Shown one piece after another: positions 19,066-62,279 of a stretch of 64,000 nucleotides of DNA. Origin of the DNA: Methanobacteriaceae archaeon (GTDB lineage Bacteria > Cyanobacteriota > Vampirovibrionia > Gastranaerophilales > Gastranaerophilaceae); assembly GCA_963602355.1 (NCBI GenBank), contig CAVCIU010000002.1, forward strand, positions 28,223-92,222, given 5' to 3'. The translations under genes and the position numbers were made by a program. Numbering within the stretch: the stretch's first letter is position 1; the number at the start of each line of letters is the position of its first letter. Under the pieces are notes generated by a model. That model was not told where the DNA came from and ran no database searches. It worked only from the letters and a program-made list of their open reading frames with translations.

Positions 19066-19100
19066 AACGGGCGAGGATAAAATCCTCGCCCGTTCTTTTA
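19066..19100 (+). terminator. rho-independent terminator of the TolC-like gene
   Basis: aacgggcgagga-taaaa-tcctcgcccgtt followed by CTTTT. Confidence 0.8.
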
Positions 19101-19113
19101 ATTGTGCAAGCTG

Positions 19114-19160
19114 GTGTTGTTGGTGTTGTCTTTGCGTAGCAAAGACAAGCAGAACAACAC
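19114..19160. repeat. long interrupted hairpin (8 bp + 10 bp)
   Basis: gtgttgttggtgttgtctttgc-gta-gcaaagacaagcagaacaacac. Confidence 0.75.
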
Positions 19161-19180
19161 GACGAAACCGCCGTTGCGTA

Positions 19181-19270
19181 GCGGATTTTCGGTAGGGCGC
19201 CGTGTGAGCATAGCGAACCCAGCCCGTAAGGTGGAGCGGGACGTTACTCCCGCGACAACCCGAACAATCC
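19181..19270. repeat. GC-rich intergenic repeat module, copy 2
   Basis: Same three blocks as 15791-15890, with an extra gcggga-cgttac-tcccgc hairpin inserted. Confidence 0.75.
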
Positions 19271-19382
19271 AAGATAGCGGAGCAATCTTTGATTGCACAG
19301 GCAGAAACTTAATCTAGCATCTACTAACTTTTCACAATTTTTGACACTTGCACACCATAAAAAAATACGTTATAATAAGAGT

Positions 19383-19483
19383 AACAAGTGGCTATTAGCG
19401 AAAGCTAATATTTTACACCACTTAGTTTACAAAACTAGAGCTAGCGCTACGACGGCAATCATAAACGCTAGCTTTTCTTGTTT
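19383..19483 (+). ncRNA. candidate small RNA convergent with and overlapping a small hydrophobic ORF (possible type I antitoxin)
   Basis: TTGCAC-N17-TATAAT (19348-19376). 5' hairpin with GAAA tetraloop (tattagc-GAAA-gctaata). GC stem agctagcg/cgctagct followed by TTTCTTGTTT. Boundaries are approximate. Confidence 0.3.
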
Positions 19484-19537
19484 ATAGAAAAGCGCTATCA
19501 TAAAATATATGACGGCTAGCGTTTTGAATGTTGCCAT
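19427..19537 (-). CDS. candidate 36-aa two-helix hydrophobic peptide (possible type I toxin)
   Basis: AAAGGGGTGA SD 6 nt before ATG; translation MATFKTLAVIYFMIALFYKQEKLAFMIAVVALALVL. Not in the ORF track (too short). Confidence 0.3.
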   Translation of the reverse strand: MATFKTLAVIYFMIALFYKQEKLAFMIAVVALALVL

Positions 19538-19774
19538 AAGCATCACCCCTTTCTTGACGTAAGCAACGTCATTTTAAAGAAATGAGTGGTGTCCACTTGT
19601 TACCTTTAATTCTAAATGTGCAATATATTTATTATATATATTTATATTTTTAATTCTATACTTCAAATGTATCATTTTTAATTGTAAACTTATGTGTTAA
19701 ATTCTAACTTTTATAATTGATATTTATTTTCCTTCGGTAAAAAATGTGTATATGAATTATGGGAGTTTATGTAG

Positions 19775-40059: not shown

Positions 40060-40368
40060 TTACATGTGCATTTCGAACTTACGTGCTGTTTTTGGTTCAG
40101 CTGCATTTAAAATGCTTGATGTCATAATGCTTTCATGTTCAATGCTTTTAATTTGTTTTGATACTTTGCCACTGAATACATCATCATTTGTAGCTAAGTA
40201 TGATTGAATTGCATTTAAGTTGCCAGCTACAGAAGCTTTAACAGATGCAGAAATTTTTTCTAAAGTTGTTTCAGGAACACGAACATTCAAGCCAAATGGT
40301 TTATAAGAAGTTAAACCTTTGTTCTTGAATAAATCGTTATTGAAAATATTGTTTGTTGTTGTTGCCAT
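40060..40368 (-). CDS. hypothetical 102-aa protein behind a sigma-28-type promoter
   Basis: ORF with AAGGAA SD. TAAATATA-N12-GCCGATAT lies 32-59 nt upstream. No family recognised. Confidence 0.6.
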   Translation of the reverse strand: MATTTNNIFNNDLFKNKGLTSYKPFGLNVRVPETTLEKISASVKASVAGNLNAIQSYLATNDDVFSGKVSKQIKSIEHESIMTSSILNAAEPKTARKFEMHM

Positions 40369-40399: not shown

Positions 40400-40427
40400 A
40401 TATCGGCACATCTACATGATATATTTA
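40400..40427 (-). promoter_or_regulatory. sigma-28 (FliA)-type promoter
   Basis: On the minus strand: TAAATATA (40427-40420), 12 nt, GCCGATAT (40407-40400). Consensus is TAAA-N15/16-GCCGATA[AT]. Confidence 0.55.
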
Positions 40428-42201: not shown

Positions 42202-42585
42202 ATGCAAGATTTAAGTTATTTAGCAACAGGTGGTGTTTTAAATTTTGACCCAAATGCATACTTAAATTCACCAGTAATTGGTACACCAAATCCTTATGGA
42301 CAAATTGGTTTGTTACCTAGTGGTACAAAATTGCAAAACCAACCTGCTAAAGACGGTTTTGTTTCTAAAAACAAAGAAACAATCAAAAAAGTTGCAGCTG
42401 GAGTAATTTTAACAGGCTTAGCAGCTTTCGGTATCTACAAATGCAAAAATGGAGCTTCAAAATTAACAGAAGCATTATCTAACACAAAGGCTGATGTTGC
42501 TAAAGGCGCTAGTGAAGCTCTTAGCAATGGCAAAGACTTTTTAAGCAAATGCGTAGATAAAGTAACAAAATTTTTCAAAAAATAA
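42202..42585 (+). CDS. hypothetical single-pass membrane protein carrying the shared leader-like motif
   Basis: 127 aa, SD AGGAG, motif LQNQPAKDGFVSKNKE followed by a TM helix (VAAGVILTGLAAFGIY). Confidence 0.6.
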   Translation: MQDLSYLATGGVLNFDPNAYLNSPVIGTPNPYGQIGLLPSGTKLQNQPAKDGFVSKNKETIKKVAAGVILTGLAAFGIYKCKNGASKLTEALSNTKADVAKGASEALSNGKDFLSKCVDKVTKFFKK

Positions 42586-46680: not shown

Positions 46681-47034
46681 CTATTTTTTCTTTTTAGCTT
46701 TTTTAGCCTCGTCCTCGACTTTGTTGATATGATTAGCAACGTCTTCTACTGTCATACCCATAGCTTTGTCATAATCTAATTTATAACCTTTTAAAAGCTT
46801 TTTCATTTCGTCAGTAGAGATATTTCCGTCGCCGTTCAAATCTAACTTTTGCATTGCCTTATCAGATAAATCTTTTGTAACAAGAGGTTTTGCAAATATT
46901 GAAACGGAACCTTTTGCCAAACTATTAAACTCTTCTTTATTAATACCTTTGCCGTCTTTATCATACTTATTTATAAGTTCTGAGACGGTCATTTTCAAAG
47001 TTTTATTATTTATAAAAGAAGAGTATTTTACCAT
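46681..47034 (-). CDS. EF-hand pair calcium-binding protein
   Basis: YDKDGKGINKEEF and LDLNGDGNISTDEMKKLL Ca-binding loops. Confidence 0.7.
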   Translation of the reverse strand: MVKYSSFINNKTLKMTVSELINKYDKDGKGINKEEFNSLAKGSVSIFAKPLVTKDLSDKAMQKLDLNGDGNISTDEMKKLLKGYKLDYDKAMGMTVEDVANHINKVEDEAKKAKKKK

Positions 47035-50100: not shown

Positions 50101-51282
50101 TGTCAAAGATTTATTAGCTTTTACAACTGTTTGAGCATTAAATCTTGCATTTTGTCTTTGTTCAACAGCTTCTTTTTCTCTTTTTTGAATACCGTTTTTA
50201 GCTGTTTTAATTGACTCTTCAGCTTTTGTTAAAGCTCTCAAGTGATATTGATGAGGAACTAATTTTGGATCATCTAAATCTCTCATCAAGTGAGAATCGT
50301 GGAATGTATCAAAGTATTTTTTATCAAATGCTGAGAAGTGAGTACTTTGAGTTTTACCGTCGCCAGAATTACCAGCGATGTTCATCCATTGCAAAGCTGA
50401 TGCGTCAAGAATTCTATAACCTTTGTCATCTGCGTAATCAAAATCTACAGGAGTTTTTTGAACAGAAACCTTTTTACCAGTTCCTAATTCAGTTGGGTCA
50501 TAAACCTTCATTGTAGGCTTGTTGCTCAACTCTTCCATAATCATATTTACGTATTTGTCTTTGTATTCATAAGCCATAACTTTTCTTGATGTAGAAATAG
50601 CAGCACACATACCGTGATGTCTTTGGTCTGTTGTTTTGATTGTTGGTTTATCATCTTCTGCTGTTTTTACAACAAGGTCGTTTAACAATTCACCCAAAAC
50701 TTGAGGTTTTTTGTCTTTTAATTGAGCATTAATTTTGTATTCTGGGCTCATCATTTTATTTAATTTTTCAAGACAAGATTTCTTTTCTTCTGTTGTAATT
50801 TCTGTTGAAATAACAAAATAATCTAGATTTTTAGAAATATTTTTAACAGCATCAATTTTAGAATTGTTCATAGCTTGAGGCAAGCCTTTTGTTTGCATCA
50901 ATTTATTTCTCAAATCTAAAACAGCTTTTTCATCTTTTGTCATTTCTTTTTTGTCAACAAAAGTAGCTTTAAATTGTTCTTGTAATTGTGCTTTATTAGG
51001 AGAATCAGTATTTGCTAAAGCTTTTGCAGTAGCTTCTTGCAATTTACCTTTCCAATTGTTATTAGATTTTTTATCATCTAAATCAAAGCTTGTACCATAT
51101 CTTAAACCTTGAGCAACGTTCATTAAGAATTTGATATTTTCTTCAGAAGAATCTTCCGACAGTTTATCAATAGCATTATTGATATTACGTTGATTGTTTA
51201 GAGTAAGTGCATCACCCTTTTGTTTCAACTGTTCTACTGTGTTTTTGTCTTCTCTTTTACCTAAAAATGAAACGTTAAACAT
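47173..51282 (-). CDS. giant (1369-aa) protein with split papain-like (C1/C1B-like) cysteine peptidase signature
   Basis: DQRHHGMCAAIS (Gln at -6 from Cys; Cys codon 50605-50607). GGHAQYIADV (His codon 49174-49176). IMHDNTWG (Asn codon 49084-49086). SD AGGAG, no signal peptide, TTAACA-N17-TATAAT upstream. Confidence 0.55.
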   Translation of the reverse strand: MFNVSFLGKREDKNTVEQLKQKGDALTLNNQRNINNAIDKLSEDSSEENIKFLMNVAQGLRYGTSFDLDDKKSNNNWKGKLQEATAKALANTDSPNKAQLQEQFKATFVDKKEMTKDEKAVLDLRNKLMQTKGLPQAMNNSKIDAVKNISKNLDYFVISTEITTEEKKSCLEKLNKMMSPEYKINAQLKDKKPQVLGELLNDLVVKTAEDDKPTIKTTDQRHHGMCAAISTSRKVMAYEYKDKYVNMIMEELSNKPTMKVYDPTELGTGKKVSVQKTPVDFDYADDKGYRILDASALQWMNIAGNSGDGKTQSTHFSAFDKKYFDTFHDSHLMRDLDDPKLVPHQYHLRALTKAEESIKTAKNGIQKREKEAVEQRQNARFNAQTVVKANKSLTNELKALMPEKSDEEMTKVVNHFLKMGEVKGKQSDDLHFFDYEEQSMKKQKMANFIKAENPNVKQEDIDKRMENIFNMYELSTETTEAMNKEVMPKSPEAKMKKLYKPLYEAAAMYRSAQDMKLDIPENLASEAKKYGLGKDATKADVMKKYEQEGKVVSEPILRSMQDKYNKIAKYAAVVEKAEVKGEKLDMPNLYEMTDAEKSALDKVGKNLNKMYSEVSREKSAKEKELEKPLNEQAKKIGAEKGSFWVSEGSSGLCTPQEIRILEQMTGKPFYAEESVEKTAERIKHGKHSGISGTSVYHNERGGHAQYIADVAPLMVKDPKTGKVEIKDAIMHDNTWGACEHKKTWLDSKGLLRTDYQCGRGGEDGYITNSAWQNGVLVEDFKYKPGNVKGEPLKMFFDGILPTANNDTTSTAQSLVQNAFVGPQIKMSSIANVLQTLNKVSAEDLDKVMKRAENAGETKAIIETEVMKDLENINSEADVSKAHKRTQGYLNDIAQKMSFTKDDAFKAIAKATQLPVTDKNIDSMDNENFNVLKHFIDTKFDPKDNKEFMAKFDEIKAMPNDKAMEMINNSTAEELSLKEITPFEVVRQIKGLEAKPNNMLKNAMFMDAIQDNIKFTEKGDSFEEAYFMLQRDWDNLNASKQIKEMKSKMFKQYGVRAAYPDCQLATKEETTELAQRFSNKLKQGVDVVNQLKMMEDGKMDTQGLTKEQIALAKKNQLADIASGKKTFIEANIEPQHRQVVTKKLNDYLSSAIKGKNVEKSYKEFENSFNQYHVLNNPKEVLKEFLRLSKSEDPAKQQMAKVYEGYMVKGCYELAKFDTAVTMMSEASNGHMHEVGKDLAKIKTPKEWDSATGKEHDLSTDEGFSSFIENAQANCGTDNTLQMIDHLGQNDRVMNLEMKNFGRLDAMKNAINMENLWQVAEYVQNKSDLVSGLNLKGHTKEQHDQKLYMQKVDSLINYINSYANNMASRLG

Positions 51283-51411: not shown

Positions 51412-52953
51412 TTATGCGTTTGTTAATTTTTCACTCAAAAATGCAATTGTTTTTGGAAAATGTTGTTGCAAATATTGAGCTCTCATTGCAAGCGCATAAT
51501 TAGCTTTATAAGTATTTAAAATTGCATTTGTTTCTGCAATTGTTTCTTTTCTTCCTCTATCCTTTTGACCTTTTACAGCTTCGTTTGCAATAAAGTAATC
51601 AATGTGGCTTCTTTGAGCTTCTGGATATTCTTTCAAGAAGTTTTTCTTTTCTTGTTCATAAACTTTTTTAAATTCTTTACTATTAGAAATCTCATCTTTT
51701 ATTTCTAATTTAAAATCTTGACCAAGACTTGAAGGTCTTTTGCTTGAATCAATAGCATGTCCAAGTTCGTGTAAAAATACTGCTGGATTGTCACTAACTG
51801 TCAATCTGCTTGAAGTTAAACAATCATCGCTGAACATATCCATATCAGTTGAACATTTTGATTGAAAATCATTATAAACAGCTTCTACACTATCAACCTT
51901 GTTAGCAAAATTCATCAATTCATCACCGGAAATAGATTTTAGCATATTAATTACAGCGCCTTTTTCTTGTCCAAAAATCTTGTTTTCAAATTCTAGTGAA
52001 GCTTTTTTATCAGTGTTTCTTTCAGAAATATTTAAACCATTTTTATTTAATGAAATATCAAAAGTTTTACCATTTCTTGTTGAAACAAAATTGTTTTCAT
52101 CAATTTTTTCAAAAGTTTGTTTTTGATTCATCAAAACTTTTCCGTTAACATCAGTAATCTTGTAATCAATTATTCTGTTACCGTTTTTATCATCTTGATA
52201 TAGATATTGAGTTCTTGTCATATCAGAAGAACGCATATCCTTTTTAATTGTTGTAACACCTGTTTTTTCATCATAAGTTGCTTTTGCTAAAGTTCTTGTT
52301 TTTCCATTTGGGAATTCGTATTTAACGTTATAAAAATTTGCAACTGGAGAAAGTTCAGAAATTTCTTTTCTTACAAGTCTACCTTGTTTATCTTTTTTAG
52401 TTTTCACTTCAGATAAAACGACATTAAAACATGTTTTAGAATCCCAGTCAGCAACGATTTCAGAAGTTAAATTGTTTCTATAATCTTCTGATTTAATTTC
52501 TACAAAAGCTGCAGCATTATAGTTATCAGTCATTTTCGGTGTAGAATAACGTGTAACTTTTGAAACTTCTTTTGCTAAAATTTTTCCATTTCTATCAACA
52601 GTTATAGAAGTACCTTCTTTTTCACCTTCTTTTGCTGTGATAACAACTGTTTCATTATCATCAAACTCATTTGCTTTGCATTGCAAAACTTTAGTTTTAT
52701 CAGTTTTGATAGACTGACCCAGTTCGATAATTTTATCAATATTCCAATCGCTTCTTATTAAATATTGTTTGCTATCATTGTCAAAGCCTGCATTATTAAG
52801 TTTATCTTGATTTTCGATTGTAAAATTATTTGGAGTTGTTTTTTCAAAAACATCTCTAGTCAAACCCATTATCGGATTTGACGCAACTTTATTTTGAACT
52901 TTATTAACTGGTTTTATTCCAGTAAAATTTATATTACTAAAATTTATATTCAC
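51412..52953 (-). CDS. zinc metallopeptidase, anthrax-LF / Pro-Pro-endopeptidase-like (M34-type) catalytic domain, with shared N-terminal leader
   Basis: LHELGHAID (HELGH at 51757-51771), downstream ETIAETNA Glu, C-terminal QYLQQHFPK. GTG start with AGGTG SD. Paralog of 57639-59126. Confidence 0.6.
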   Translation of the reverse strand: MNINFSNINFTGIKPVNKVQNKVASNPIMGLTRDVFEKTTPNNFTIENQDKLNNAGFDNDSKQYLIRSDWNIDKIIELGQSIKTDKTKVLQCKANEFDDNETVVITAKEGEKEGTSITVDRNGKILAKEVSKVTRYSTPKMTDNYNAAAFVEIKSEDYRNNLTSEIVADWDSKTCFNVVLSEVKTKKDKQGRLVRKEISELSPVANFYNVKYEFPNGKTRTLAKATYDEKTGVTTIKKDMRSSDMTRTQYLYQDDKNGNRIIDYKITDVNGKVLMNQKQTFEKIDENNFVSTRNGKTFDISLNKNGLNISERNTDKKASLEFENKIFGQEKGAVINMLKSISGDELMNFANKVDSVEAVYNDFQSKCSTDMDMFSDDCLTSSRLTVSDNPAVFLHELGHAIDSSKRPSSLGQDFKLEIKDEISNSKEFKKVYEQEKKNFLKEYPEAQRSHIDYFIANEAVKGQKDRGRKETIAETNAILNTYKANYALAMRAQYLQQHFPKTIAFLSEKLTNA

Positions 52954-53029
52954 GTTGCCTACACCTATACGTCTTTAAAAACATGAATATAAAAGAAATT
53001 GCCCTATATCAAAATTTCATTAAAAAATA

Positions 53030-53749
53030 TTACTGATTTTCGATTTCTTTTGTCCATTTATCTTTGCCCCAAAGTTCAAGATAAATTTTTGGTGCATTTT
53101 CATCTAACTTATTCAACGCATTTTCAATTTGTAATAAAATTTCTTTTTCTTGTTCTGGAGTCGCATCTTTTGGAACGTAAATTGGTTCAGAATAACAATT
53201 CGCAATTTTTACAATACCCACAGGGAATTGTAATTTATCCCAAGTTGGAAGTTTAATCATATGTTTTGAAGGTGAATACCAATTCATAGGAATAATTGGT
53301 GCGCCTGTGTGTTTAGCCAATGCAATAATACCTTTTTTAGCCTTCTTTGCTGGTCCATTTGGACCGTCAACCATAACAGCAACGTTTTCGCCTCTTTCCA
53401 AAGCTTCCATCATTTCAATTGTAGAACTTACTCCACCTTTATCAAGGATAGCTCTGTTTTGAGAACCTCTAATTGTTTTAAAACCAAAATATTTTGCACC
53501 TGCATCAATGATTTCACCGTCCATTGAACGACTAATCAAAACATTTGTATTTTTTCTATTTTTCAACCCGAAAATACTACATTGATGAGCATGCCATAAT
53601 GCGTATATTGCAGGTTCATCATCTTGATAATTATGCAATCTAAACCATGACATGTGTCTTTGTATTGAAAATAAAAGAACAATAAATTTTCTTAGTATAA
53701 ATGCTATTATCTTTTCATCTAGTGTTAATTCTTGTTTTATTAATTTCAT
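53030..53749 (-). CDS. DUF374 / lysophospholipid-acyltransferase-like protein
   Basis: ALWHAHQ, ISRSMDGEII, RGSQNR, MVDGPNGPAKKAKKG typical of DUF374. Confidence 0.75.
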   Translation of the reverse strand: MKLIKQELTLDEKIIAFILRKFIVLLFSIQRHMSWFRLHNYQDDEPAIYALWHAHQCSIFGLKNRKNTNVLISRSMDGEIIDAGAKYFGFKTIRGSQNRAILDKGGVSSTIEMMEALERGENVAVMVDGPNGPAKKAKKGIIALAKHTGAPIIPMNWYSPSKHMIKLPTWDKLQFPVGIVKIANCYSEPIYVPKDATPEQEKEILLQIENALNKLDENAPKIYLELWGKDKWTKEIENQ

Positions 53750-53790
53750 ATTTTGAACAATCCTTATATTTTTTAAAATTATTATACCCT

Positions 53791-53826
53791 AAAAAAAGGG
53801 TAAAATCCGTAGACTTTACCCTTTTA
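53791..53826 (-). terminator. rho-independent terminator
   Basis: A7-gggtaaa-atccgtagac-tttaccc-TTTT. Confidence 0.65.
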
Positions 53827-53846
53827 AAAATATTTTAAAGTTCAAA

Positions 53847-54659
53847 CTATTCTTGTGATTTATTTCCAATGATATCTAGAGCTTCTAATTTTATTGATTT
53901 TGCAACAATAAATGCTTCTGTCAACATAAAATAATAAGCTACTAATGAAACTAAAATTGAACTAATAAAGAATAAGATTGGATTTTTTAAAACAACTGTA
54001 CTTGACAAAAATCCTACTAACATAATTGCTACAAAGAACAAGCACATAAACAATGCAACACCTTTTAAGTATTGTTTTTTATCCAACATAAAGATTTTTG
54101 TTGCCATCATATATCTAAAATAAGTTAGTAAATTAGATTTGTATGCGAACATAAAATTGAAGATTGGGAAATAGAATAAAAATACAAATACTACTAATGC
54201 AATCAATGCAATTGTAACATAGAACATAATTTGGTTAGAAAATGCTAATGCAACGATTATACTTGCTGTTAAGAATAAAGATGCAACAAGTACAAAAAGT
54301 ACATAGATAAAACCAAACGCAACTGCAACCTTCAAACCTTTTGTAAAATTACATTTTAAACTCATTTCTGGTAAAGTAAATTCATTTTCTTGACTAGAAA
54401 GAGATTTAACCAACGACAAAATATAACCGTTTGGAATAAACATTAAAACCAAAGAAACAAAAGCTAATAAGATATATACCCAGTTCCAGATAGGATCGTG
54501 CATTGAATCTTGCCAATGAGAATTTAAAACGGGCATAAATTCTTGAAGTACAGTTGCAAAATTAGATACTAAAGTTGATGCCAAGATAAACAAAAAGAAA
54601 ATATATGTTTTCTTAATAACGTTTGTATCTTTAAACATGTAATAAAAAGCTTGTTTCAT
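53847..54659 (-). CDS. polytopic membrane protein (DUF4013-like)
   Basis: Start ATG 54659 (MKQAFYYMFKD) follows a GAGGAG SD; 6-7 TM helices. Confidence 0.55.
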   Translation of the reverse strand: MKQAFYYMFKDTNVIKKTYIFFLFILASTLVSNFATVLQEFMPVLNSHWQDSMHDPIWNWVYILLAFVSLVLMFIPNGYILSLVKSLSSQENEFTLPEMSLKCNFTKGLKVAVAFGFIYVLFVLVASLFLTASIIVALAFSNQIMFYVTIALIALVVFVFLFYFPIFNFMFAYKSNLLTYFRYMMATKIFMLDKKQYLKGVALFMCLFFVAIMLVGFLSSTVVLKNPILFFISSILVSLVAYYFMLTEAFIVAKSIKLEALDIIGNKSQE

Positions 54660-54770
54660 GATATCTCTCCTCAAAGAATAATTTACAGAAAAATTATAGC
54701 AATTTCCATTAGCCAACGCAATAATTATTAACTATTGTGATAATATAAAAATAAAAAGTAGGATTTGAAA

Positions 54771-55319
54771 ATGAATAGATGTTCTTGGGTTAATATGAAA
54801 AACCCATTGTATGTAAAATATCACGATGAGGAATGGGGAGTTCCGACGCATGACGACAAGACTTTGTACGAATTATTAATTCTCGAAAGTTTTCAAGCAG
54901 GTCTTTCGTGGGAATGCGTTTTAAACAAACGTGAAAATTTTAGAAAAGCTTTTGATAATTTTGATATTGATAAAGTTTCAAATTATGATGAAACAAAAAT
55001 CAACGAACTTCTTCAAAACACAGGCATTATCAGAAACAAATTAAAAATTAATGCAAGTATAAATAACAGCAAAATCTTTAAAGAAATACAAAAAGAATTT
55101 GGCTCATTTGATAAATACATTTGGAGTTTTACAGACGGAAAAATTGTTATTGAAAGTTTTGAAAAAAGAACATTTTCTCCACTCTCTGACAAAATTTCAA
55201 AAGACCTAAAAAAGAGAGGTATGAAATTTGTCGGCACAACAATTATTTATTCCTATTTGCAAGCAATTGGAATAATCAACGGACATTCTGAAAATTGCAA
55301 TAAATTCAAGTCAAATTAG
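54771..55319 (+). CDS. tag: DNA-3-methyladenine glycosylase I
   Basis: MNRCSWV..YHDEEWGVP..LFELLILESFQAGLSW: canonical Tag blocks. Confidence 0.92.
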   Translation: MNRCSWVNMKNPLYVKYHDEEWGVPTHDDKTLYELLILESFQAGLSWECVLNKRENFRKAFDNFDIDKVSNYDETKINELLQNTGIIRNKLKINASINNSKIFKEIQKEFGSFDKYIWSFTDGKIVIESFEKRTFSPLSDKISKDLKKRGMKFVGTTIIYSYLQAIGIINGHSENCNKFKSN

Positions 55320-56923
55320 ACACTCTTAAAGAATTTTTCTGCTGCAGAATAATCTAAATTTCTCATATAATCTTTAGAAACTTTTTCTTGATATTGACCA
55401 TTATAGAACATGAACTTGTATTCCAAGAATGCTTCAACTGCAATATCTTTTTCAGACATTTCTGGGTGTTCTTTTTTCATTTTATCAATAAACTTCATAT
55501 AATCTTTATCAATAACCACCGTTTTCATACCATTTGGACCGGGAGCATCTACTTGTTTAGAATAATCAGGGTCGTTCTTGCTTGCTTCTTTATACAATTT
55601 ATATTCCATATAGAAGGTTACAACCTCTTGTTGAAGAGGAGGCATTTTATCGTCTAAAAGAGCATGCGTTAGCTCGTGAGTTACAACTGATGCAATTTCA
55701 GGTTTTGAAATCGATTCTGTATCAACAGTAATCATATTACCGATATGAGTTCCGACAGCATCTCTACGTTTGCTATCATACAAACATTGGTCTTTCAAAA
55801 TATTTGCATAATCTTTTTGTAAATCTTCTGGAAGATGTTTCATATTTTCTAGCATATAAACACCACTATCAAGTATCTTATGTATAGCTTGTTTATCTTG
55901 AGTTGTTATCTTTTTATTTTTTGTATTTTCGCCAATTGCTTTGTCATAACCGACCATATCAAGCTCGTTCATTGCATTTAAAAATTCTGCTAGACCAACA
56001 GCATTGCCAGCTTTGTCAGTAGAATGACCAGAGGCTGAGAAGTAACCTTTTTCTTTGTTATCTAGTTTACCGTCGCCATTCAAGTCAAAAATTTCATAAC
56101 CTTTTTTAACATTGCCGGCTTCATCAACAATATCTTTGAACGCAATTTTTTCACTATTTTTAAATTGAGTTTTTATCTCATCAGAAATTATACTATTTCC
56201 TTTTTCATCTTTTAACTCTGATTTTTCTAACTTTTCACGATTAGCTGCCAATAATTCAGCTTTCGTTTTATCGTAAGCTTTTTGTTTATCTTCTTTTGAA
56301 ATAACTCCGTCAGCTTTTTCAGAATCTTTGTCTAATTGATTTAAGTATTTATCAAGGTGGTTAATTTTTGAAGAAATGCCTATACCACTTTTTGATTGAT
56401 ATTCCTTTTCAACAGTGTCGATTTTACCGTCTTCATTAAGGTCAAAAATTTCCATACCTTTTTTGACTTTACCGTCTACATCTGCAATTTTTTTAGATAC
56501 ATCACTACGTTCAAAACCAAAGACCTCCTTTAGTTCTGGAGTCATAATCATTTTACCAGACTCATCTTTATAATTTGAGACACGATTTAAAACTTTTTCA
56601 TCAGCAGTCGGATTTAGTTTGAACATTTTATCAATGAATTTCACTAAATCTTGTTGAGTAATTTCTTTTTTCTTAACTTTTTCATCTTGTAAAAAGATAT
56701 TAATATCATTTTGAGTAATGGTACCCTTTGTACCTTGCTCTTTATCAAGCATATTTATGGAAACTATTTTAGAGTCTGATTTTTCAAACTTGTTATAAGC
56801 ATTATTTGTCAGATAATCAAACAAGAATTGTTCTTTTTTATCTTCTTTAAAATCAGCTTTCTTGATAGAAAAATTTCTGTTTTTGATATTAAATTTAATT
56901 TCTTCGTTATTAATTTCAGACAT
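55316..56923 (-). CDS. HExxH metallopeptidase-like protein with two internal repeats, each carrying an EF-hand/dockerin-like Ca loop
   Basis: VTHELTHALLDD (HELTH at 55664-55678). Duplicated ..KKGMEIFDLNEDGKIDTVEKEY.. and ..KKGYEIFDLNGDGKLDNKEKGY.. No signal peptide. Confidence 0.6.
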   Translation of the reverse strand: MSEINNEEIKFNIKNRNFSIKKADFKEDKKEQFLFDYLTNNAYNKFEKSDSKIVSINMLDKEQGTKGTITQNDINIFLQDEKVKKKEITQQDLVKFIDKMFKLNPTADEKVLNRVSNYKDESGKMIMTPELKEVFGFERSDVSKKIADVDGKVKKGMEIFDLNEDGKIDTVEKEYQSKSGIGISSKINHLDKYLNQLDKDSEKADGVISKEDKQKAYDKTKAELLAANREKLEKSELKDEKGNSIISDEIKTQFKNSEKIAFKDIVDEAGNVKKGYEIFDLNGDGKLDNKEKGYFSASGHSTDKAGNAVGLAEFLNAMNELDMVGYDKAIGENTKNKKITTQDKQAIHKILDSGVYMLENMKHLPEDLQKDYANILKDQCLYDSKRRDAVGTHIGNMITVDTESISKPEIASVVTHELTHALLDDKMPPLQQEVVTFYMEYKLYKEASKNDPDYSKQVDAPGPNGMKTVVIDKDYMKFIDKMKKEHPEMSEKDIAVEAFLEYKFMFYNGQYQEKVSKDYMRNLDYSAAEKFFKSV

Positions 56924-57040
56924 AGTTATCCCACCTTGCCCATGTAAAAACAGCTAAAGCTAAAAAATTTACTAATTTCAGAATAAATTTTAACAATTTT
57001 TAGTATTTGAATTAAAATAATAACAATAGGAGAAATAAAA

Positions 57041-57550
57041 ATGAAAGTTTTAAGCAAACAAAAAAATTCAAGAATGTGCTTTATATGCGGAATGGATAAC
57101 CCACAAGGCTTTAAATCACAATTTTATAATATGGAAGACGGAAGTGTAATTGCACCAGTAAGATACAAAGATGTACACCAAAGCTTTCCGCAAAGAGTTC
57201 ACGGTGGATTAATTGCAACAATGCTAGACGAACTTGCATGTAGAGCTTATTGGGTAAACGGTGATTACACATTGGGTGTTACAACATCAATGGAATTAAA
57301 ATATAGAAAACCTGTGCCATATGATGTTGATTTGTTAGCTCAAGGTTATGTGATTTACGACAAATCAAGAATGTTTAAAACTAAATCAAAAATTATTGAT
57401 AAAGACGGAACCGTTTTTGCAGAATCAATAACAACTTATTTAAAATTACCAGTTGAAAAGATTGCACAAAACGTAGATGTACATGAAGAAATGCCATATT
57501 TGATTGAAGACGGCATTACAGAAATCGATTACGTTTCAACAATGGATTAA
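57041..57550 (+). CDS. PaaI/hotdog-fold thioesterase
   Basis: CFICGMDNPQG.., HGGLIATMLDE typical of PaaI-family thioesterases. Confidence 0.8.
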   Translation: MKVLSKQKNSRMCFICGMDNPQGFKSQFYNMEDGSVIAPVRYKDVHQSFPQRVHGGLIATMLDELACRAYWVNGDYTLGVTTSMELKYRKPVPYDVDLLAQGYVIYDKSRMFKTKSKIIDKDGTVFAESITTYLKLPVEKIAQNVDVHEEMPYLIEDGITEIDYVSTMD

Positions 57551-57638
57551 TATATTAAAGATTGTAAAAATCATGCTCTAATCAAGCAATAATCATGGTT
57601 TATCTACCTTAACTATGGCATAAGGTAGTGTATTAAAT

Positions 57639-59126
57639 ATGTTAATTAATTCTGTAAACACAGTCTCAAAAACAGTATCTAAGCCGTTAAACAAGGTTGT
57701 CCCTCAACCTCGAATGATAAATGGCTTGGCTAAAGATACTTTCCAAAAAAGCACTACTGTTACAAACCCAAAAAGAATGATGCCTCCAAATACTAGTATA
57801 AAAGGCATATTTGATTTGTCATACTCAACTCTTAGACCTGAAAATAAGGCAAAAGTTGATGAAGCAAAAGAAAGATTGAAAAAACAATACGGCAATGAAA
57901 TCATTGATTTAACTTTTGAAGCCGATAAATATTCACCAAACAATGAATACTGCTTAAAAGCTACATTAGGAATATCAGAAAGCCATTCTGAATTTTATGA
58001 TAATGATATAAATAAAATTGGTGAAGAAGATGTAAGCTATTATGCCAAAAATGGTGAAGTGTATATAATTACTAAGAATACAGATTATAGAAATAATACA
58101 ACTACTAAAGTTAGAAAACAATTTGATAATAATGGCAAAAAAGTTGTAACAGACGAAGTTAGAATTGTAAGAGATAAAAATAATAATATTGTCAGAAAAG
58201 AAATGATGACTCATTCTGACATAACAGGTGCTTTTGACCAAAAATACGTTTACCCAGACGGAACAGAAAAAGTAATTTCTCAAACAAAGAAATTCAAAAA
58301 GTTTGACGGAATGGAATGTGTTCATAAAGATATGACATCAATTGACGGAACAAGAACACAATACAAACTTGAACAAGATAACAAAGGCAATAAACTTTTA
58401 GAATACAAAATTACCGATAAAGACGGTAAAGTTTTGATGAATTTAAACAAAACTATGGAAAGAGTTTCTGATAACAAAGTTATCTCTTCTAATGGTGATA
58501 AAGTTTATGAAATGACTTTTGAGCCAAAACAAATAACAATTCAAGAAAGAGGAAAAGAAGCAACAGTTATACCAATTAAAAAAGGCTTTTTCTCAAGAAA
58601 AGGTTTAAAAATTACTGGCGAAAAGAAAGAAATGGCTGAGTTGTTGCAAAAATTGCCAGCCGAGCAATTAAAAGTATTATCAAAAACAGTAAAGACTTTA
58701 AACGGTACAAACAATACAAAAGAATGCAATATGCAACCTTTGTCAAAAACCGTTAACACAATAAACGAAGTCTTTTCTGCATTACACGAAATCGGACACG
58801 CAGTAGATTATAAAAAATCAAGCTTGTTCTTGCCTGATTTTACAACAATTTCAAGAGATGATGATTTAAAAAGAATTTATTCAGAAGAAAAAGATAATTT
58901 TGATAAAGCATATCCAAATGCTCAAAGAGAGCACCTTGATTACTTTATCGACCAAAAAGAACACTACTCTGGAAAATGGGGTGGTTTACAAGAATTAGTT
59001 GCAGAAACAAACGCACTAAGAGATTCTTACACAACAGAAGAGGCTTTAGCCGTTCGTGTACAATACTTGCAACAACATTTTCCAAAATCAATAGCATATA
59101 TAAATAATATGTTAGAAAAACAATAG
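57639..59126 (+). CDS. zinc metallopeptidase, M34-type (anthrax-LF/PPEP-like) domain, with shared N-terminal leader; paralog of 51412-52953
   Basis: LHEIGHAVD (HEIGH at 58785-58799), LVAETNAL, QYLQQHFPK. Shared strings with the paralog: DYRNN, TRTQY, YKITD, GKVLMN. Confidence 0.6.
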   Translation: MLINSVNTVSKTVSKPLNKVVPQPRMINGLAKDTFQKSTTVTNPKRMMPPNTSIKGIFDLSYSTLRPENKAKVDEAKERLKKQYGNEIIDLTFEADKYSPNNEYCLKATLGISESHSEFYDNDINKIGEEDVSYYAKNGEVYIITKNTDYRNNTTTKVRKQFDNNGKKVVTDEVRIVRDKNNNIVRKEMMTHSDITGAFDQKYVYPDGTEKVISQTKKFKKFDGMECVHKDMTSIDGTRTQYKLEQDNKGNKLLEYKITDKDGKVLMNLNKTMERVSDNKVISSNGDKVYEMTFEPKQITIQERGKEATVIPIKKGFFSRKGLKITGEKKEMAELLQKLPAEQLKVLSKTVKTLNGTNNTKECNMQPLSKTVNTINEVFSALHEIGHAVDYKKSSLFLPDFTTISRDDDLKRIYSEEKDNFDKAYPNAQREHLDYFIDQKEHYSGKWGGLQELVAETNALRDSYTTEEALAVRVQYLQQHFPKSIAYINNMLEKQ

Positions 59127-59178
59127 AACTATCACTCAACAAAAAAATACACTAGCTATCAAACAAAAGGAGAAATAT

Positions 59179-59589
59179 ATGAAAATTATGCAAATGGCGA
59201 ATAGAGCCGTATCACAGCAACAAAGAACAAAAGTTCAAGTTCAACAAAGAGTAACAAACCCAATGTTCATTGTACCAAAGATGAAATTACAAGGTCCTGA
59301 AAAGGATATGTTTGTAAAATCAGCACAAAAACCTCAAGAAACAAAGAAAAAAGAAGAATACACTAACGAAGATGCAATGGCATTAATGAGAGAAGAATTA
59401 AAAGACGCAATGCCAGAAGAAGAATTAAATACATTTATGGAAAACCTTGACGGTATGTGCAAATATTTGAACATTGAACCAAAAGATTTACCAATCAATG
59501 AAGAGCACCCTGGAAATTTAACAGAAGACCAAAGAAAACAAGTTTTCTACTTGTTAAAGGTTGATTCATTGTCTCCAGTTACAAAATAA
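59179..59589 (+). CDS. hypothetical acidic 136-aa protein with shared N-terminal leader
   Basis: SD AAGGAG. Leader MKIMQMANRAVSQQQRTKVQVQQRVTNP...PEKDMFVKS, then an acidic helical part. Confidence 0.6.
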   Translation: MKIMQMANRAVSQQQRTKVQVQQRVTNPMFIVPKMKLQGPEKDMFVKSAQKPQETKKKEEYTNEDAMALMREELKDAMPEEELNTFMENLDGMCKYLNIEPKDLPINEEHPGNLTEDQRKQVFYLLKVDSLSPVTK

Positions 59590-59648
59590 CAGCATATAAA
59601 TATATATAGTCTTTTTAATTCAAATTAATATAAGGAAGTAGGAATATA

Positions 59649-60395
59649 ATGAAAATAAATAGTGTTGCTCCACAATTTTATACTAGTCAAATGACTAGTA
59701 TCACTAGCAAAAATATCACTCCAGTGTCAGCGCCTCAAACCCAAAACAAGAACGTAACTTCACCAATTAAAAAAGATGCGTTATCACACTTGGCATATTT
59801 AGGTATTCAAAGCCTTCCTTATACTGCAAACGTAACTTTTAAGGGCGACCCTAATAAACAAAAGAAAGGCTATGTACAGGTTTATACAGGCGACGGCAAA
59901 GGTAAAACAACAGCCGCGATGGGACTTTCATTGAGAGCTTTAGGACAAGGTAAAAAAGTTAATATCACAATGTTTACCAAAGGCGGAGATAATTACGGTG
60001 AAATCAAAGCCTTTAATAAACTTCAACCAGATATTAGAAAAAATTTAACTATAAACCAAGCAGGGCTTGATAGAATTGTTTATACATCAAACGAGACTGA
60101 AGAAGATAGAAAAATCATGAGACAAGGTTGGGAAAATGCTAAGAAGGTTATTAATAGTGGTGAAGCAGACCTTGTTGTACTTGACGAAATCAATATTGCA
60201 GTAGATTTGAACATTATTGATGAAAAAGATGTTTTAGAAACTATTAAGAATAAACCCGAAAACGTTGAAATTGTAATGACAGGCAGAAATGCACACAAGA
60301 GCATTATGGAAGCTGCAGATTTAGTATCAAACATTCAAGCCGTGAAACACTACTATGATGCTGGTGTTATGGCAAGAGAAGGTATCGAATACTAG
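59649..60395 (+). CDS. cobO: cob(I)yrinic acid a,c-diamide adenosyltransferase (CobO/BtuR type) with ~70-aa N-terminal leader extension
   Basis: VYTGDGKGKTTAAMG P-loop, LVVLDEIN, MTGRNA, VKHYYDAGVMAREGIEY. The N-terminus carries the shared leader. Confidence 0.85.
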   Translation: MKINSVAPQFYTSQMTSITSKNITPVSAPQTQNKNVTSPIKKDALSHLAYLGIQSLPYTANVTFKGDPNKQKKGYVQVYTGDGKGKTTAAMGLSLRALGQGKKVNITMFTKGGDNYGEIKAFNKLQPDIRKNLTINQAGLDRIVYTSNETEEDRKIMRQGWENAKKVINSGEADLVVLDEINIAVDLNIIDEKDVLETIKNKPENVEIVMTGRNAHKSIMEAADLVSNIQAVKHYYDAGVMAREGIEY

Positions 60396-61037: not shown

Positions 61038-62228
61038 TTAACCGAATAATGAGAAACCTCTTTCAGCATTTTCTGAAATTAATGATTTCATTGATTCATA
61101 TTCTGTGCAAGCTGCTGAGTATTCAGTTTCTGCTTGTTTTTGTCTTAAATCAAGACCTTTTTCTTTGATTGTCATTTTACCAGTTTCAGCATCATAGTAG
61201 TTTTGAGCAGCTTGTCTTGCAGCATCTCTTCTTGAATAATCGATTGTTTGAATTGTTGAAGTTTCAGTCCAAGTTTCTGTATCAGTTGTACCTTCAGTAG
61301 CAGCTGTGCCTGCGTTATAAGTAGCAACATCACTTAATGAAAGTTGTTGACCATCTTTTGAAAGAATGATTGAACCGTTGATGATTGATTCTTTTAATAA
61401 TTCTGAGTCAGTTTTGCATCTATCTAATAAAGAAGATGAACCTGTTGATTGTGCTGGAGTTGAAGAAGGAGTTTCTTCATAGTAACCGTAAGCTGGATCA
61501 CCGACTTTAGAAGCATCTGGAGTAGCATCAGCTTTACCCATAGAACCAAGAATTTCTTCTAATTTGCTTTGGCTGAAAGCAACTCTAGTGTTGTAGCTAG
61601 AAGTATCAGCTGTTGAAGATTGAGCAAACATTTTAGCTAATCTGTTAGCGCTATAATATTTACCATATTGGCATTCTTGTTCGCCTTCTGGTTGGAAGCC
61701 TGTTAAAGCTTTGTAAGTTGTTTCAGTAGTACTTTTTGTACCATCTGCGTTCCAACCTGTAGCACCAGGATTTTGTGTATCGATTAAGCCTTTGTCGCCT
61801 AATAATTTAACTAATTCAGCAACTGTTTGAGGCATTTGCCAAGCATCGCCACCAGTTGTGTACCATTTCCAAACTTTTTCAGTTGAGTTTGCGTTTGAAT
61901 TTGATACTGCATTTTTTTCTTTAATTTCATAACCAGCATTTCTCAAGTTGTTGTAATCTAAAGAAATGTTGAAGTTCCAGCCACCAGCTGTACCAGCAGT
62001 ACCAGCTGTATTGTATGTTCTAGAACCGTTTGTTGTATTTGTAGTTGTAATATAGTCAGGACCAATGTTATTAGCTTCGTTTAACATATTATTATATTTA
62101 ATAGATATGTTATTAGACATAGCAGTTAAAAGAATTTTTTCATTTGTACAACGCATAGAAGTTAACTCAAGATCATGCATTCTTGATTGTAGAGTTAAAA
62201 GTCTTGCTTGATTTGCTGCTAAACCCAT
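61038..62228 (-). CDS. sigma-28-dependent 396-aa protein with flagellin-like architecture (helical conserved termini, Thr/Ser/Gly/Asn-rich centre)
   Basis: ATG 62228 (MGLAANQARLLTLQSR) follows AGGAAAGGAAAA. The GTG 62261 of the ORF track lies upstream of the predicted transcription start. No signal peptide. Confidence 0.7.
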   Translation of the reverse strand: MGLAANQARLLTLQSRMHDLELTSMRCTNEKILLTAMSNNISIKYNNMLNEANNIGPDYITTTNTTNGSRTYNTAGTAGTAGGWNFNISLDYNNLRNAGYEIKEKNAVSNSNANSTEKVWKWYTTGGDAWQMPQTVAELVKLLGDKGLIDTQNPGATGWNADGTKSTTETTYKALTGFQPEGEQECQYGKYYSANRLAKMFAQSSTADTSSYNTRVAFSQSKLEEILGSMGKADATPDASKVGDPAYGYYEETPSSTPAQSTGSSSLLDRCKTDSELLKESIINGSIILSKDGQQLSLSDVATYNAGTAATEGTTDTETWTETSTIQTIDYSRRDAARQAAQNYYDAETGKMTIKEKGLDLRQKQAETEYSAACTEYESMKSLISENAERGFSLFG

Positions 62229-62251: not shown

Positions 62252-62279
62252 TTATCGGCACACTTGAAGAAAACCTTTA
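62252..62279 (-). promoter_or_regulatory. sigma-28 (FliA)-type promoter
   Basis: On the minus strand: TAAAGGTT (62279-62272), 12 nt, GCCGATAA (62259-62252). Near-identical to the enterobacterial TAAAGTTT-N11-GCCGATAA consensus. Confidence 0.65.

Follow-up and report, generated by a model that had tools for sequence, protein, structure and literature searches.

We analyzed a stretch of 64,000 nucleotides (nt; called the window below) of contig CAVCIU010000002.1 in assembly GCA_963602355.1, whose source is a Gastranaerophilales (Melainabacteria) gut bacterium. We observed that the genes for two HExxH proteins (zincins) of 513 and 495 amino acids (aa), for a 136-aa protein and for a CobO-type enzyme, and in a reduced form also the gene for a 1369-aa protein, begin with a lineage-specific N-terminal module that is predicted to be disordered. 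This module, called the tag or leader in the following, is ~10–70 residues long and is composed of the start M-x-[IV]-[NQS]-x-x-[IV], an optional element [ST]-N-P-[IV]-K, the motif D-[TS]-F-[EQ]-K with its Asp at residue 30 at the earliest, and the motif N-[VI]-x-F-x-[GA]. Judged by its conservation and its position, the tag is a real, lineage-specific and motif-coded N-terminal module. N-terminal sorting or processing leaders are known as a kind, but the sequence of this one, the way it is spread over cytoplasmic-type enzymes and the lineage in which it occurs are new, and we found no description of it in the literature. Among its possible functions we put export first, tentatively and with a probability of roughly 0.35. 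The open reading frames (ORFs) and translations, which we re-derived from the window, agreed with those of the first-pass annotation; the parts discussed are the following.

57639 to 57809, plus strand: leader of the 495-aa zincin (residues 1–57), with a predicted local distance difference test score (pLDDT) below 50, D33 invariant in 76 members, and translated according to the codon-position pattern; its motifs are the start MLINSV, K-D-T-F-Q-K (32–37), T-N-P (42–44) and S-I-K-G (53–56).
57810 to 59126, plus strand: folded part of the 495-aa zincin, with a helix, an antiparallel beta region (88–327) and a helical HExxH domain (329–494, HEIGHAVD); pLDDT above 90.
52834 to 52953, minus strand: leader of the 513-aa zincin (residues 1–40), MNINFSNINFTG, with S-N-P-I-M and R-D-V-F-E-K, matched by leader hidden Markov models at 4e-7 and 4e-11.
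51412 to 52833, minus strand: body of the 513-aa zincin (HELGHAID).
59179 to 59331, plus strand: leader of the 136-aa protein (residues 1–51), with the start MKIMQMA, T-N-P-M-F and K-D-M-F-V-K-S; it aligns with the zincin leaders.
59332 to 59589, plus strand: acidic helical C-terminal part of the 136-aa protein, with no Pfam or NCBIfam match.
59649 to 59861, plus strand: N-terminal extension of CobO (residues 1–71), with the start MKINSV, V-T-S-P-I-K-K-D-A-L-S-H and A-N-V-T-F-K-G.
59862 to 60395, plus strand: CobA/CobO/BtuR ATP:corrinoid adenosyltransferase domain (PF02572, E 2.9e-62, residues 72–248).
51256 to 51282, minus strand: tag N-V-S-F-L-G of the 1369-aa orphan (MFNVSFLGK), identical in the relatives sampled, all of them close ones.
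42334 to 42369, plus strand: segment Q-N-Q-P-A-K-D-G-F-V-S-K of a 127-aa membrane protein, a doubtful member with D-x-F only.

The Asp and Phe of the leader are conserved as strongly as an active site. Nearly all members of the zincin family start with M-x-[IV]-[NQS]-x-[VI] and carry D-[TS]-F-[EQT]-[KR]. In an alignment of 76 zincin sequences D33 is invariant and F35 is kept in more than 90%, which is level with the catalytic residues H383, E384 and H387 (these three and E456 are invariant as well). We observed a clear spacing rule: the Asp lies between residues 30 and 43 in 105 of 107 distinct zincin leaders (minimum 30, median 33), and 95 of the 107 start with M-x(1-3)-[IVL]-x-x-[IVLF], as do the leaders of the 136-aa protein, of CobO and of the M29 and PepT peptidases described below. 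The start M.[IV][NQS] is found in 70% of the family genes compared to 2.3% of other genes. Orthologs retain the module down to about 35% identity, and across 35–60% identity the motifs are kept in three families (zincin, 136 and CobO); conservation in orthologs, on which the first-pass annotation had made its proposal depend, was thus seen in each of them. In the 136-aa family, 37 homologs keep MK[IL]..[IV]-A-F-x-A, [ST]-N-P-[IV]-K and [KR]-D-[VMT]-F-[EV]-K-[ST], and some of its members read K-D-T-F-E-K-S exactly as the zincins do. The CobO extension is kept in about 40 homolog clusters (62–94% identity) as MK[IV]N[SN][IV], N-[VI]-[TS]-S-P-[IF]-K-x-D-A-L-[ST]-H and N-V-T-F-[KR]-G; other Gastranaerophilales CobO proteins, of 187–193 aa, have no such extension. 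The leader is also retained in the ortholog of the 513-aa protein at L002 (loci of related genomes are cited by such numbers). Within the first 40 codons, the differences between close orthologs number 25, 5 and 47 at codon positions 1, 2 and 3; of the changed codons 34 are synonymous and 27 non-synonymous. The leader is therefore translated and under purifying selection. A start at internal Met codons, which had been named as the finding that would remove the leader, fails on this pattern. Because synonymous codons vary freely inside both motifs, it is the protein that is constrained rather than the RNA, and a regulatory site in the 5' coding region was rejected on the same ground.

Next to its conservation, the sharing of the leader among unrelated proteins had to be separated from common descent. 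The claim had been that the mature parts of all leader-bearing proteins are unrelated to one another. This is wrong for the 513-aa and 495-aa proteins, which are paralogs over their whole length (32% identity, E 6e-64), so that the similarity of their leaders is inherited; it is correct for the 136-aa protein and CobO. A profile made of zincin leaders only finds the 495-aa and 513-aa proteins and returns the 136-aa, CobO and 127-aa proteins at noise level (E 2–11), and we conclude from this that the resemblance consists of short motifs with variable spacing and not of one alignable domain. In a joint alignment of 136-family and zincin leaders the motifs line up. We ran the corresponding joint profile, which contained no CobO sequence, against all 251 ORFs of the window. 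It picked exactly four: the 136-aa (1e-19) and 513-aa (4e-11) proteins, which were both in the training set, CobO residues 1–42 (E 1.8e-4) and the 495-aa protein (E 3.6e-3), with the next ORF at E = 1. The idea of a common leader on unrelated proteins therefore stands in so far as the 136-aa protein and CobO share it with the zincins. The pattern [ST][NS]P[IVMF] occurs four times in 20,015 residues of the window, in all four cases within the first 70 residues of a protein. When a 45-position leader profile was compared with 1.84 billion representative proteins, five matches were obtained at E <= 0.001, namely two 136-family members and three repetitive proteins, the profile being too short for a library of this size. 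The remaining candidates of the first-pass annotation did less well. In the 127-aa membrane protein Q-P-x-x-D-x-F is kept in six orthologs, but the leader profiles do not detect it; the echo in a 535-aa HExxH protein (K-K-A-D-F-K) does not fit D-x-F, and that in a 102-aa protein (N-N-D-L-F-K) is not conserved in its ortholog.

In order to find further carriers we scanned 1.39 Mb from 87 loci of related genomes. These loci were gathered around zincin genes and are not a random genome sample; the control with internal positions is independent of this choice. At least two of the three motifs were present in 39 of 1309 N-terminal windows of 80 residues compared to 6 of 3264 internal windows, and all three in 15 N-terminal windows compared to none of the internal ones, so that within the sampled loci the expected N-terminal enrichment was observed. 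For proteins outside the family, we found the strict form N[VI][STAN]F.[GA] 15 times within the first 80 residues and not once in 234,575 internal residues; the second motif that had been pointed out, N-[VI]-x-F-x-G, is thus strongly N-terminal. The carriers include an M29 aminopeptidase, identified by Pfam (MNINPVNIV...APNFKG...GLKADTVQISKS), two Amidohydro_2 proteins (one with NIAFNG-R-IIDSHTH, the other with MNLAISPIK...PISFKG-YD-IIDGHTH), a DHH phosphoesterase (MLSINQRMANVSFKAN), a GH13-like protein of 1358 aa (MRVNLNLLNPVKAVSFKG) that is unrelated to the 1369-aa MFNVSFLGK protein of the window, and several small orphans of the related loci. A PepT peptidase is tagged as well (MKVNAINSYKPVNFGQ..., NCBIfam E 7e-140 from residue 30); its D-T-F, however, belongs to the first helix of PepT itself, so that single motifs should not be over-read. 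By this motif census the tag is common to at least nine unrelated protein families. In the 88% relative of the window the M29 aminopeptidase (L002 14867–16645, minus strand) has 592 aa and a 55-residue tag, and two Pfam stretches after the tag indicate an apparent partial duplication of the M29 N-terminal segment.

We compared the leaders with the known classes of N-terminal signals. Sec, Tat, lipoprotein and prepilin signals are, like the tag, N-terminal and found on many unrelated proteins, but the tag lacks a hydrophobic core, a twin arginine, a lipobox cysteine and the sequence G-F-T-L-x-E. Residues 2–30 are enriched in Q (3.2x), P (2.9x), N, T, S, V and K and depleted of L (0.46x), E (0.45x), D (0.23x), C (0.07x) and Arg (0.58x). 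For 196 leader-bearing proteins, not deduplicated, the highest Kyte-Doolittle value of any 12-residue window within residues 1–60 is 0.73 in the median and 1.57 at most, compared to 2.6–2.9 for two Sec signals of the window; in agreement with the original description, the leaders thus have no hydrophobic region (h-region) and are not Sec, Tat or lipoprotein signals. The listed leaders contain no RR that could go with a Tat signal, no lipobox was seen in leaders with cysteine at 0.07x of background, and none of the leaders has the prepilin motif. Other proteins from the same genomes or related loci do carry ordinary Sec signals or prepilin signals (FTLAE). Pfam and NCBIfam scans of the leaders returned neither a signal-type family nor any other match. 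A resemblance to FlgM, which had been suggested, failed: neither six leaders at E <= 10 nor ten proteins at E <= 0.1 matched the FlgM family (PF04316). FlgM shares the M-K-I-N start and a polar, disordered N-terminal half with the tag, while its C-terminal part is unrelated to those of the tagged proteins. An AlphaFold model of the 495-aa protein, made from the 76-member family alignment (mean pLDDT 88), has residues 1–57 disordered, followed by a helix, an antiparallel beta region and a C-terminal helical HExxH domain. Disorder was predicted for both leaders tested, the other being that of CobO (residues 1–43), whose extension is disordered except for a low-confidence helix at K-K-D-A-L-S-H-L-A-Y-L.

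The largest group of carriers is that of the zincins. Alignments and domain matches place the 495-aa and 513-aa proteins in a large Melainabacteria/Gastranaerophilales family with an HExxH domain like that of anthrax lethal factor (LF). The protein search gave 285 clusters for it, 253 relatives were confirmed among species-representative genomes, and some metagenome-assembled genomes (MAGs) contain at least eight copies, with tandem arrays of five. The sole meaningful match of the HExxH domain among sequences of the PDB is the LF core (E 0.0064), and the corresponding Pfam family ATLF (peptidase family M34) gave 18.3 bits, which is under its cut-off of 27.4. The beta region has weak Foldseek matches alone, to OspA-like sheets and Rhs/teneurin shells. 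Whole-protein scans assigned no Pfam or NCBIfam family to the zincins or to the 136-aa protein. The AlphaFold model shows no contact of the leader with the catalytic domain. A propeptide of the aspartate-switch type, in which the invariant Asp would sit in the zincin active site, was set aside, given the pLDDT below 50 of residues 1–57 and the occurrence of the motif on non-peptidases. The family was not found in viral contigs, which speaks against a link to phages or injection particles. Several observations concern the surroundings of the zincin genes. L008 (10001–18978) contains a tandem of five zincin paralogs, in one of which a frameshift separates ORFs of 537 and 73 aa; all five have MEINK...GLKEDTF.K leaders, and two prepilin-type (FTLAE) genes lie directly upstream. 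Two families of small membrane proteins are found beside zincin genes: one of ~175 aa at 22 loci (L004 11763–12284, L009 10878–11405), with an N-terminal transmembrane helix and a tail rich in Met, Asp and Lys, and one of ~140 aa at 20 loci (L009 11517–11924), with duplicated C-D-G-G-G-L-T-A motifs and a C-terminal transmembrane helix.

The CobO-type protein of 248 aa is identified by its family matches as a bona fide CobA/CobO adenosyltransferase: TIGR00708 gives 173.5 bits (cut-off 167.75), it has the P-loop GDGKGKT, whose core G..GKGKT does not vary among the aligned sequences. The genes for the 495-aa, 136-aa and CobO proteins had been taken for an operon. They are indeed consecutive, with spacers of 52 and 59 nt and no terminator-like site between them, but the arrangement is not conserved: in the 88% relative nrdG and nrdD follow the zincin gene, at L022 the 136 and CobO genes are on the opposite strand, and L085 has nrdD-nrdG-136-CobO with no adjoining zincin gene. 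The conserved unit is the 136-CobO pair, with both proteins tagged, in the window and at L010, L022 and L085. At these four places no cobalamin biosynthesis or transport genes were found near the pair.

Four features of the tag have to be explained: its strict N-terminal position, its disorder, the near-invariant D-x-F at residue 30 at the earliest, and the many unrelated carriers, most of which are hydrolases. The function that we favor, at the probability given above, is that of a Sec-independent export signal; by analogy its likeliest route would be the flagellar type III export apparatus or a derivative of it, because a layout of docking and then gate opening is how early flagellar subunits work. 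In these subunits a Phe-centred motif has to dock on FlhB before the gate can be opened by small hydrophobic residues at positions 2–5 (PMC8983047). The gate-recognition motif lies at least 30 residues from the N-terminus in all Salmonella rod and hook subunits, and a separation of at least 24–26 residues from the hydrophobic signal is needed (PMC8983047). In the tag, residues 3 and 6 are I or V and the Phe comes no earlier than residue 32; in both the small hydrophobic residues at the N-terminus and the distance to the docking motif it agrees with an early flagellar signal. Applied to the tagged proteins, the signal would be recognised from the N-terminus without Sec, D-x-F, as the docking motif, would keep the unfolded protein bound to a receptor in the cytoplasm, and the small hydrophobic residues at the very N-terminus, separated from D-x-F by at least ~26 residues, would then engage the translocation gate. 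In this way a set of hydrolases would be released in one step, namely the LF-like zincins, aminopeptidases, amidohydrolases and an amylase-like giant. A wider version, which we hold to be a little less probable and put forward with some doubt, is that of a previously undescribed sorting code, in which a motif-defined N-terminal tag on cytoplasmic-type hydrolases and lineage-specific toxin-like proteins would be read by a dedicated machine, possibly the flagellar export core.

The early flagellar type III signal (Bryant et al. 2022, PMC8983047) resembles the tag in being N-terminal and unstructured, with hydrophobic residues within the first six, a Phe-centred motif at least 30 residues in and a minimum separation of ~24–26 residues; it is not cleaved. 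The tag differs from it in its motif D-[TS]-F-[EQ]-K and in its carriers, which are enzymes and not axial proteins, and neither flagellar regulation nor a consistent linkage was seen. Non-flagellar proteins exported by the flagellar apparatus are Cia, FlaC and Fed of Campylobacter and YplA of Yersinia. Like the tagged set, they are enzymes or effectors of flagellated bacteria and have N-terminal signals but no Sec signals; their signals are not known to contain a conserved motif, whereas the motifs of the tag are near-invariant and common to many families. The lineage studied here is flagellated, as a flagellin gene is present in the window. According to a recent preprint, all flagellar genes are encoded in about a quarter of the Gastranaerophilales genomes, while the rest retain flhB, fliI and flgG, and the authors suggest that the retained genes serve secretion (bioRxiv 10.64898/2026.04.24.720558). 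Most of the cargo looks extracellular, if the LF-like HExxH domain, the OspA/Rhs-like beta region and the large paralog arrays are taken as a guide. At L019 (8350–11518) flgB-flgC-fliE are followed 141 nt further on, on the same strand, by the gene for a tagged zincin of 505 aa, the sole such arrangement among about 87 loci.

A number of observations weigh against export by this route. The order of the motifs differs between zincin subfamilies: N-[VI]-x-F-x-[GA] is located at residues 5–10, upstream of the invariant D-T-F-E-K, in the subfamily of 580–640 aa and downstream of D-T-F in the 495-like subfamily, and such a variable order would suit a set of independent docking motifs more than one linear signal. 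The gate-recognition sequence F-x-x-x-hydrophobic is not seen, as in most leaders S, T, Y, K, G or E is the fourth residue after F. N-V-S-F-x-G often directly adjoins the folded domain, a position that a cleavage site would have. To our knowledge, type III signals are normally not conserved in sequence. CobO needs ATP, and DHH/NrnA-like, PepT and M29 enzymes are cytoplasmic in other bacteria. Flagellar genes occur within 10 kb of tagged genes at 2 of about 87 loci (L019 and L036), so that genomic linkage is an anecdote and not an enrichment. Sigma-28 promoters had been cited in support of a flagellar route; GCCGATA elements do exist in the window, but none lies upstream of a tagged gene, and sigma-28 control of these genes was discarded, the element being found only upstream of a 102-aa and a 396-aa gene or inside genes. 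Of the interpretation given first, what stands is a non-Sec, N-terminal, conserved and modular leader on unrelated proteins, to which export would have to be added. As an observation apart, GCCGATA at 40401–40407 and at 62253–62259 (both minus strand) has the form of a sigma-28-type -10 element with TAAA ~15 nt upstream, and stands ahead of two orphan genes, the 102-aa gene (40060–40368) and a ‘407-aa’ ORF that probably starts with the ATG at 62228 (MGLAANQARLL...). Both orphans have orthologs in relatives and may be unrecognised proteins of the flagellar regulon.

The border position of N-V-S-F-x-G would fit a cleavable pro-sequence, which we regard as unlikely, though it comes closest to export in our estimate. 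A site-specific protease would cut N-[VI]-x-F-x|[GA] and remove 8–70 residues, or, as a variant, the LF-like zincins themselves would cut near [ST]-N-P; the hydrolases and CobO would be kept inactive or unassembled until processing. Such a system exists in Firmicutes, where Prp removes the N-terminal extension of ribosomal protein L27 and of phage 80alpha capsid proteins, the extensions having 9–15 residues and the motif MLxx(D/N)LQ(F/L)F'A(S/H)KK (PMC9405229). Short tags (8–22 residues) and the pattern N-aliphatic-polar-F-x-small resemble the Prp motif, and in both cases a short extension on unrelated proteins brings this pattern directly before the mature protein; however, the P1 Phe of the Prp substrates is not conserved in the tag, where P1 is highly variable, and D-x-F has no Prp counterpart. 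The strict motif is located at or just before the conserved domain in CobO (7–8 residues ahead of GY[IV]QVYTG), in the amidohydrolases at the junctions given above, in the DHH protein and in the 495-like subfamily, and cytoplasmic cargo is no difficulty for processing. Lethal factor, which the zincins resemble, cuts disordered N-termini. Cleavage would, on the other hand, remove D-T-F in the 495-like subfamily and keep it in the subfamily of 580–640 aa, in which the motif is not a simple leader-removal site because it precedes D-T-F-E-K. The sampled DNA, which consists of zincin-centred loci, contains no Prp or L27 gene. The predicted absence of contacts between leader and zincin domain speaks against a pro-sequence. 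The flexible order of motifs in a disordered region would also suit intracellular recruitment, in which short multivalent docking motifs bring the enzymes to one partner, be it a scaffold, a protein compartment of the encapsulin or microcompartment type, or the machinery that loads a contractile injection particle; this we consider slightly less probable again than processing. ATP-dependent and housekeeping enzymes among the cargo would be expected, the conserved and doubly tagged 136-CobO pair suggests one destination for both proteins, and cargo-loading peptides of encapsulins and microcompartments are similarly short. Against recruitment, simple docking would need neither an anchor at residue 1 nor a minimum of 30 residues, and a compartment shared by giant orphans, LF-like zincins and CobO is hard to see. 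No shell, sheath, tube or Pvc15-like gene was found among the listed Pfam-annotated neighbors of the loci or among those window proteins that were scanned, and the absence of the zincins from viral contigs points in the same direction. The payloads Pdp1 and Pnf of the Photorhabdus virulence cassette (PVC) have a disordered N-terminal packaging region of ~50 residues, which is transferable and occurs on unrelated payloads (PMC10097599, PMC11495950). The tag resembles these regions in its disorder and in its unrelated carriers, but the sequences are unrelated, and PVC payload genes adjoin the PVC operon whereas no injection-system genes were seen near tagged genes at the loci with listed neighbors.

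It could also be that the tag has no shared function at all: it would be a segment specific to the zincins, and the likeness to the 136-aa protein and CobO would result from local duplication or recombination, low complexity and A-rich codons after the start. The zincin-only profile, which misses the 136-aa, CobO and 127-aa proteins, agrees with this, as do the two 136-family members among just five matches in the largest search, the adjacency of the 136 and CobO genes (one leader could copy the other), the gathering of the enrichment dataset around zincin genes and the helix-borne D-T-F of PepT. However, we judge this reading to be the least probable of all, because the Asp and Phe are as conserved as catalytic residues and the motifs persist in three families across the identities given above. 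The strict motif, moreover, is N-terminal in 15 cases and internal in none, in at least four unrelated enzymes outside the family; the characteristic start is present in 70% of family genes against 2.3% of others, and synonymous variation shows that selection acts on the protein.

Some further observations concern the window as a whole. Its G+C content is 30%, and its products include flagellin, LptF/G, lipopolysaccharide and sugar enzymes, proteins with ordinary Sec signals and many orphans. Shine-Dalgarno sites precede the annotated starts of the 136-aa, CobO, 127-aa and 1369-aa genes. Homologs of the window proteins come almost only from MAGs of human, rumen and other guts that are labelled Candidatus Melainabacteria, Gastranaerophilales or Gastranaerophilaceae. 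A few homolog contigs are labelled otherwise (Muribaculaceae, Alistipes, Eubacteriales), probably by mis-binning, and contigs with the zincin family under MAG names of Muribaculaceae, Alistipes senegalensis, Eubacteriales or Anaerovoracaceae (L027, L042, L043, L045, L046, L057, L062, L066, L067, L070, L075, L080 and L082) are probably binning contamination. The 535-aa HExxH protein (55316–56923, minus strand) contains two EF-hand/dockerin-like loops, DLNEDGKID and DLNGDGKLD, for which Pfam EF-hand_5 is slightly under its cut-off, and its neighbor of 117 aa (46681–47034, minus strand) is EF-hand-like as well; calcium-binding modules of this type are typical for extracellular proteins. Just past the terminator of an 808-aa gene we observed a G+C-rich island of ~200 nt (19100–19300) and near it a second segment (19370–19610) with long-range complementary ends (GTAACAAGTGG...CCACTTGTTAC). 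No Rfam family reached its threshold in 19100–19610, where only sub-threshold matches on the terminator hairpin were obtained; the region may be an undescribed structured RNA.

Gastranaerophilales are widespread, uncultured and non-photosynthetic relatives of cyanobacteria in the guts of humans and animals, and their interaction with the surroundings is almost unstudied. A tag defined by sequence predicts which of their proteins are handled together, and I3, V6, D33, F35 and the spacer length are features that can be mutated. If the tag is an export signal, it would define the secretome of Gastranaerophilales and would explain the reported retention of flagellar export genes in genomes that do not encode the complete flagellar set; a signal that is type III-like and can yet be recognised by a conserved motif would also be out of the ordinary and of use in engineering. 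As a pro-sequence or a recruitment tag, on the other hand, it would represent a new case of coordinated control of hydrolases.

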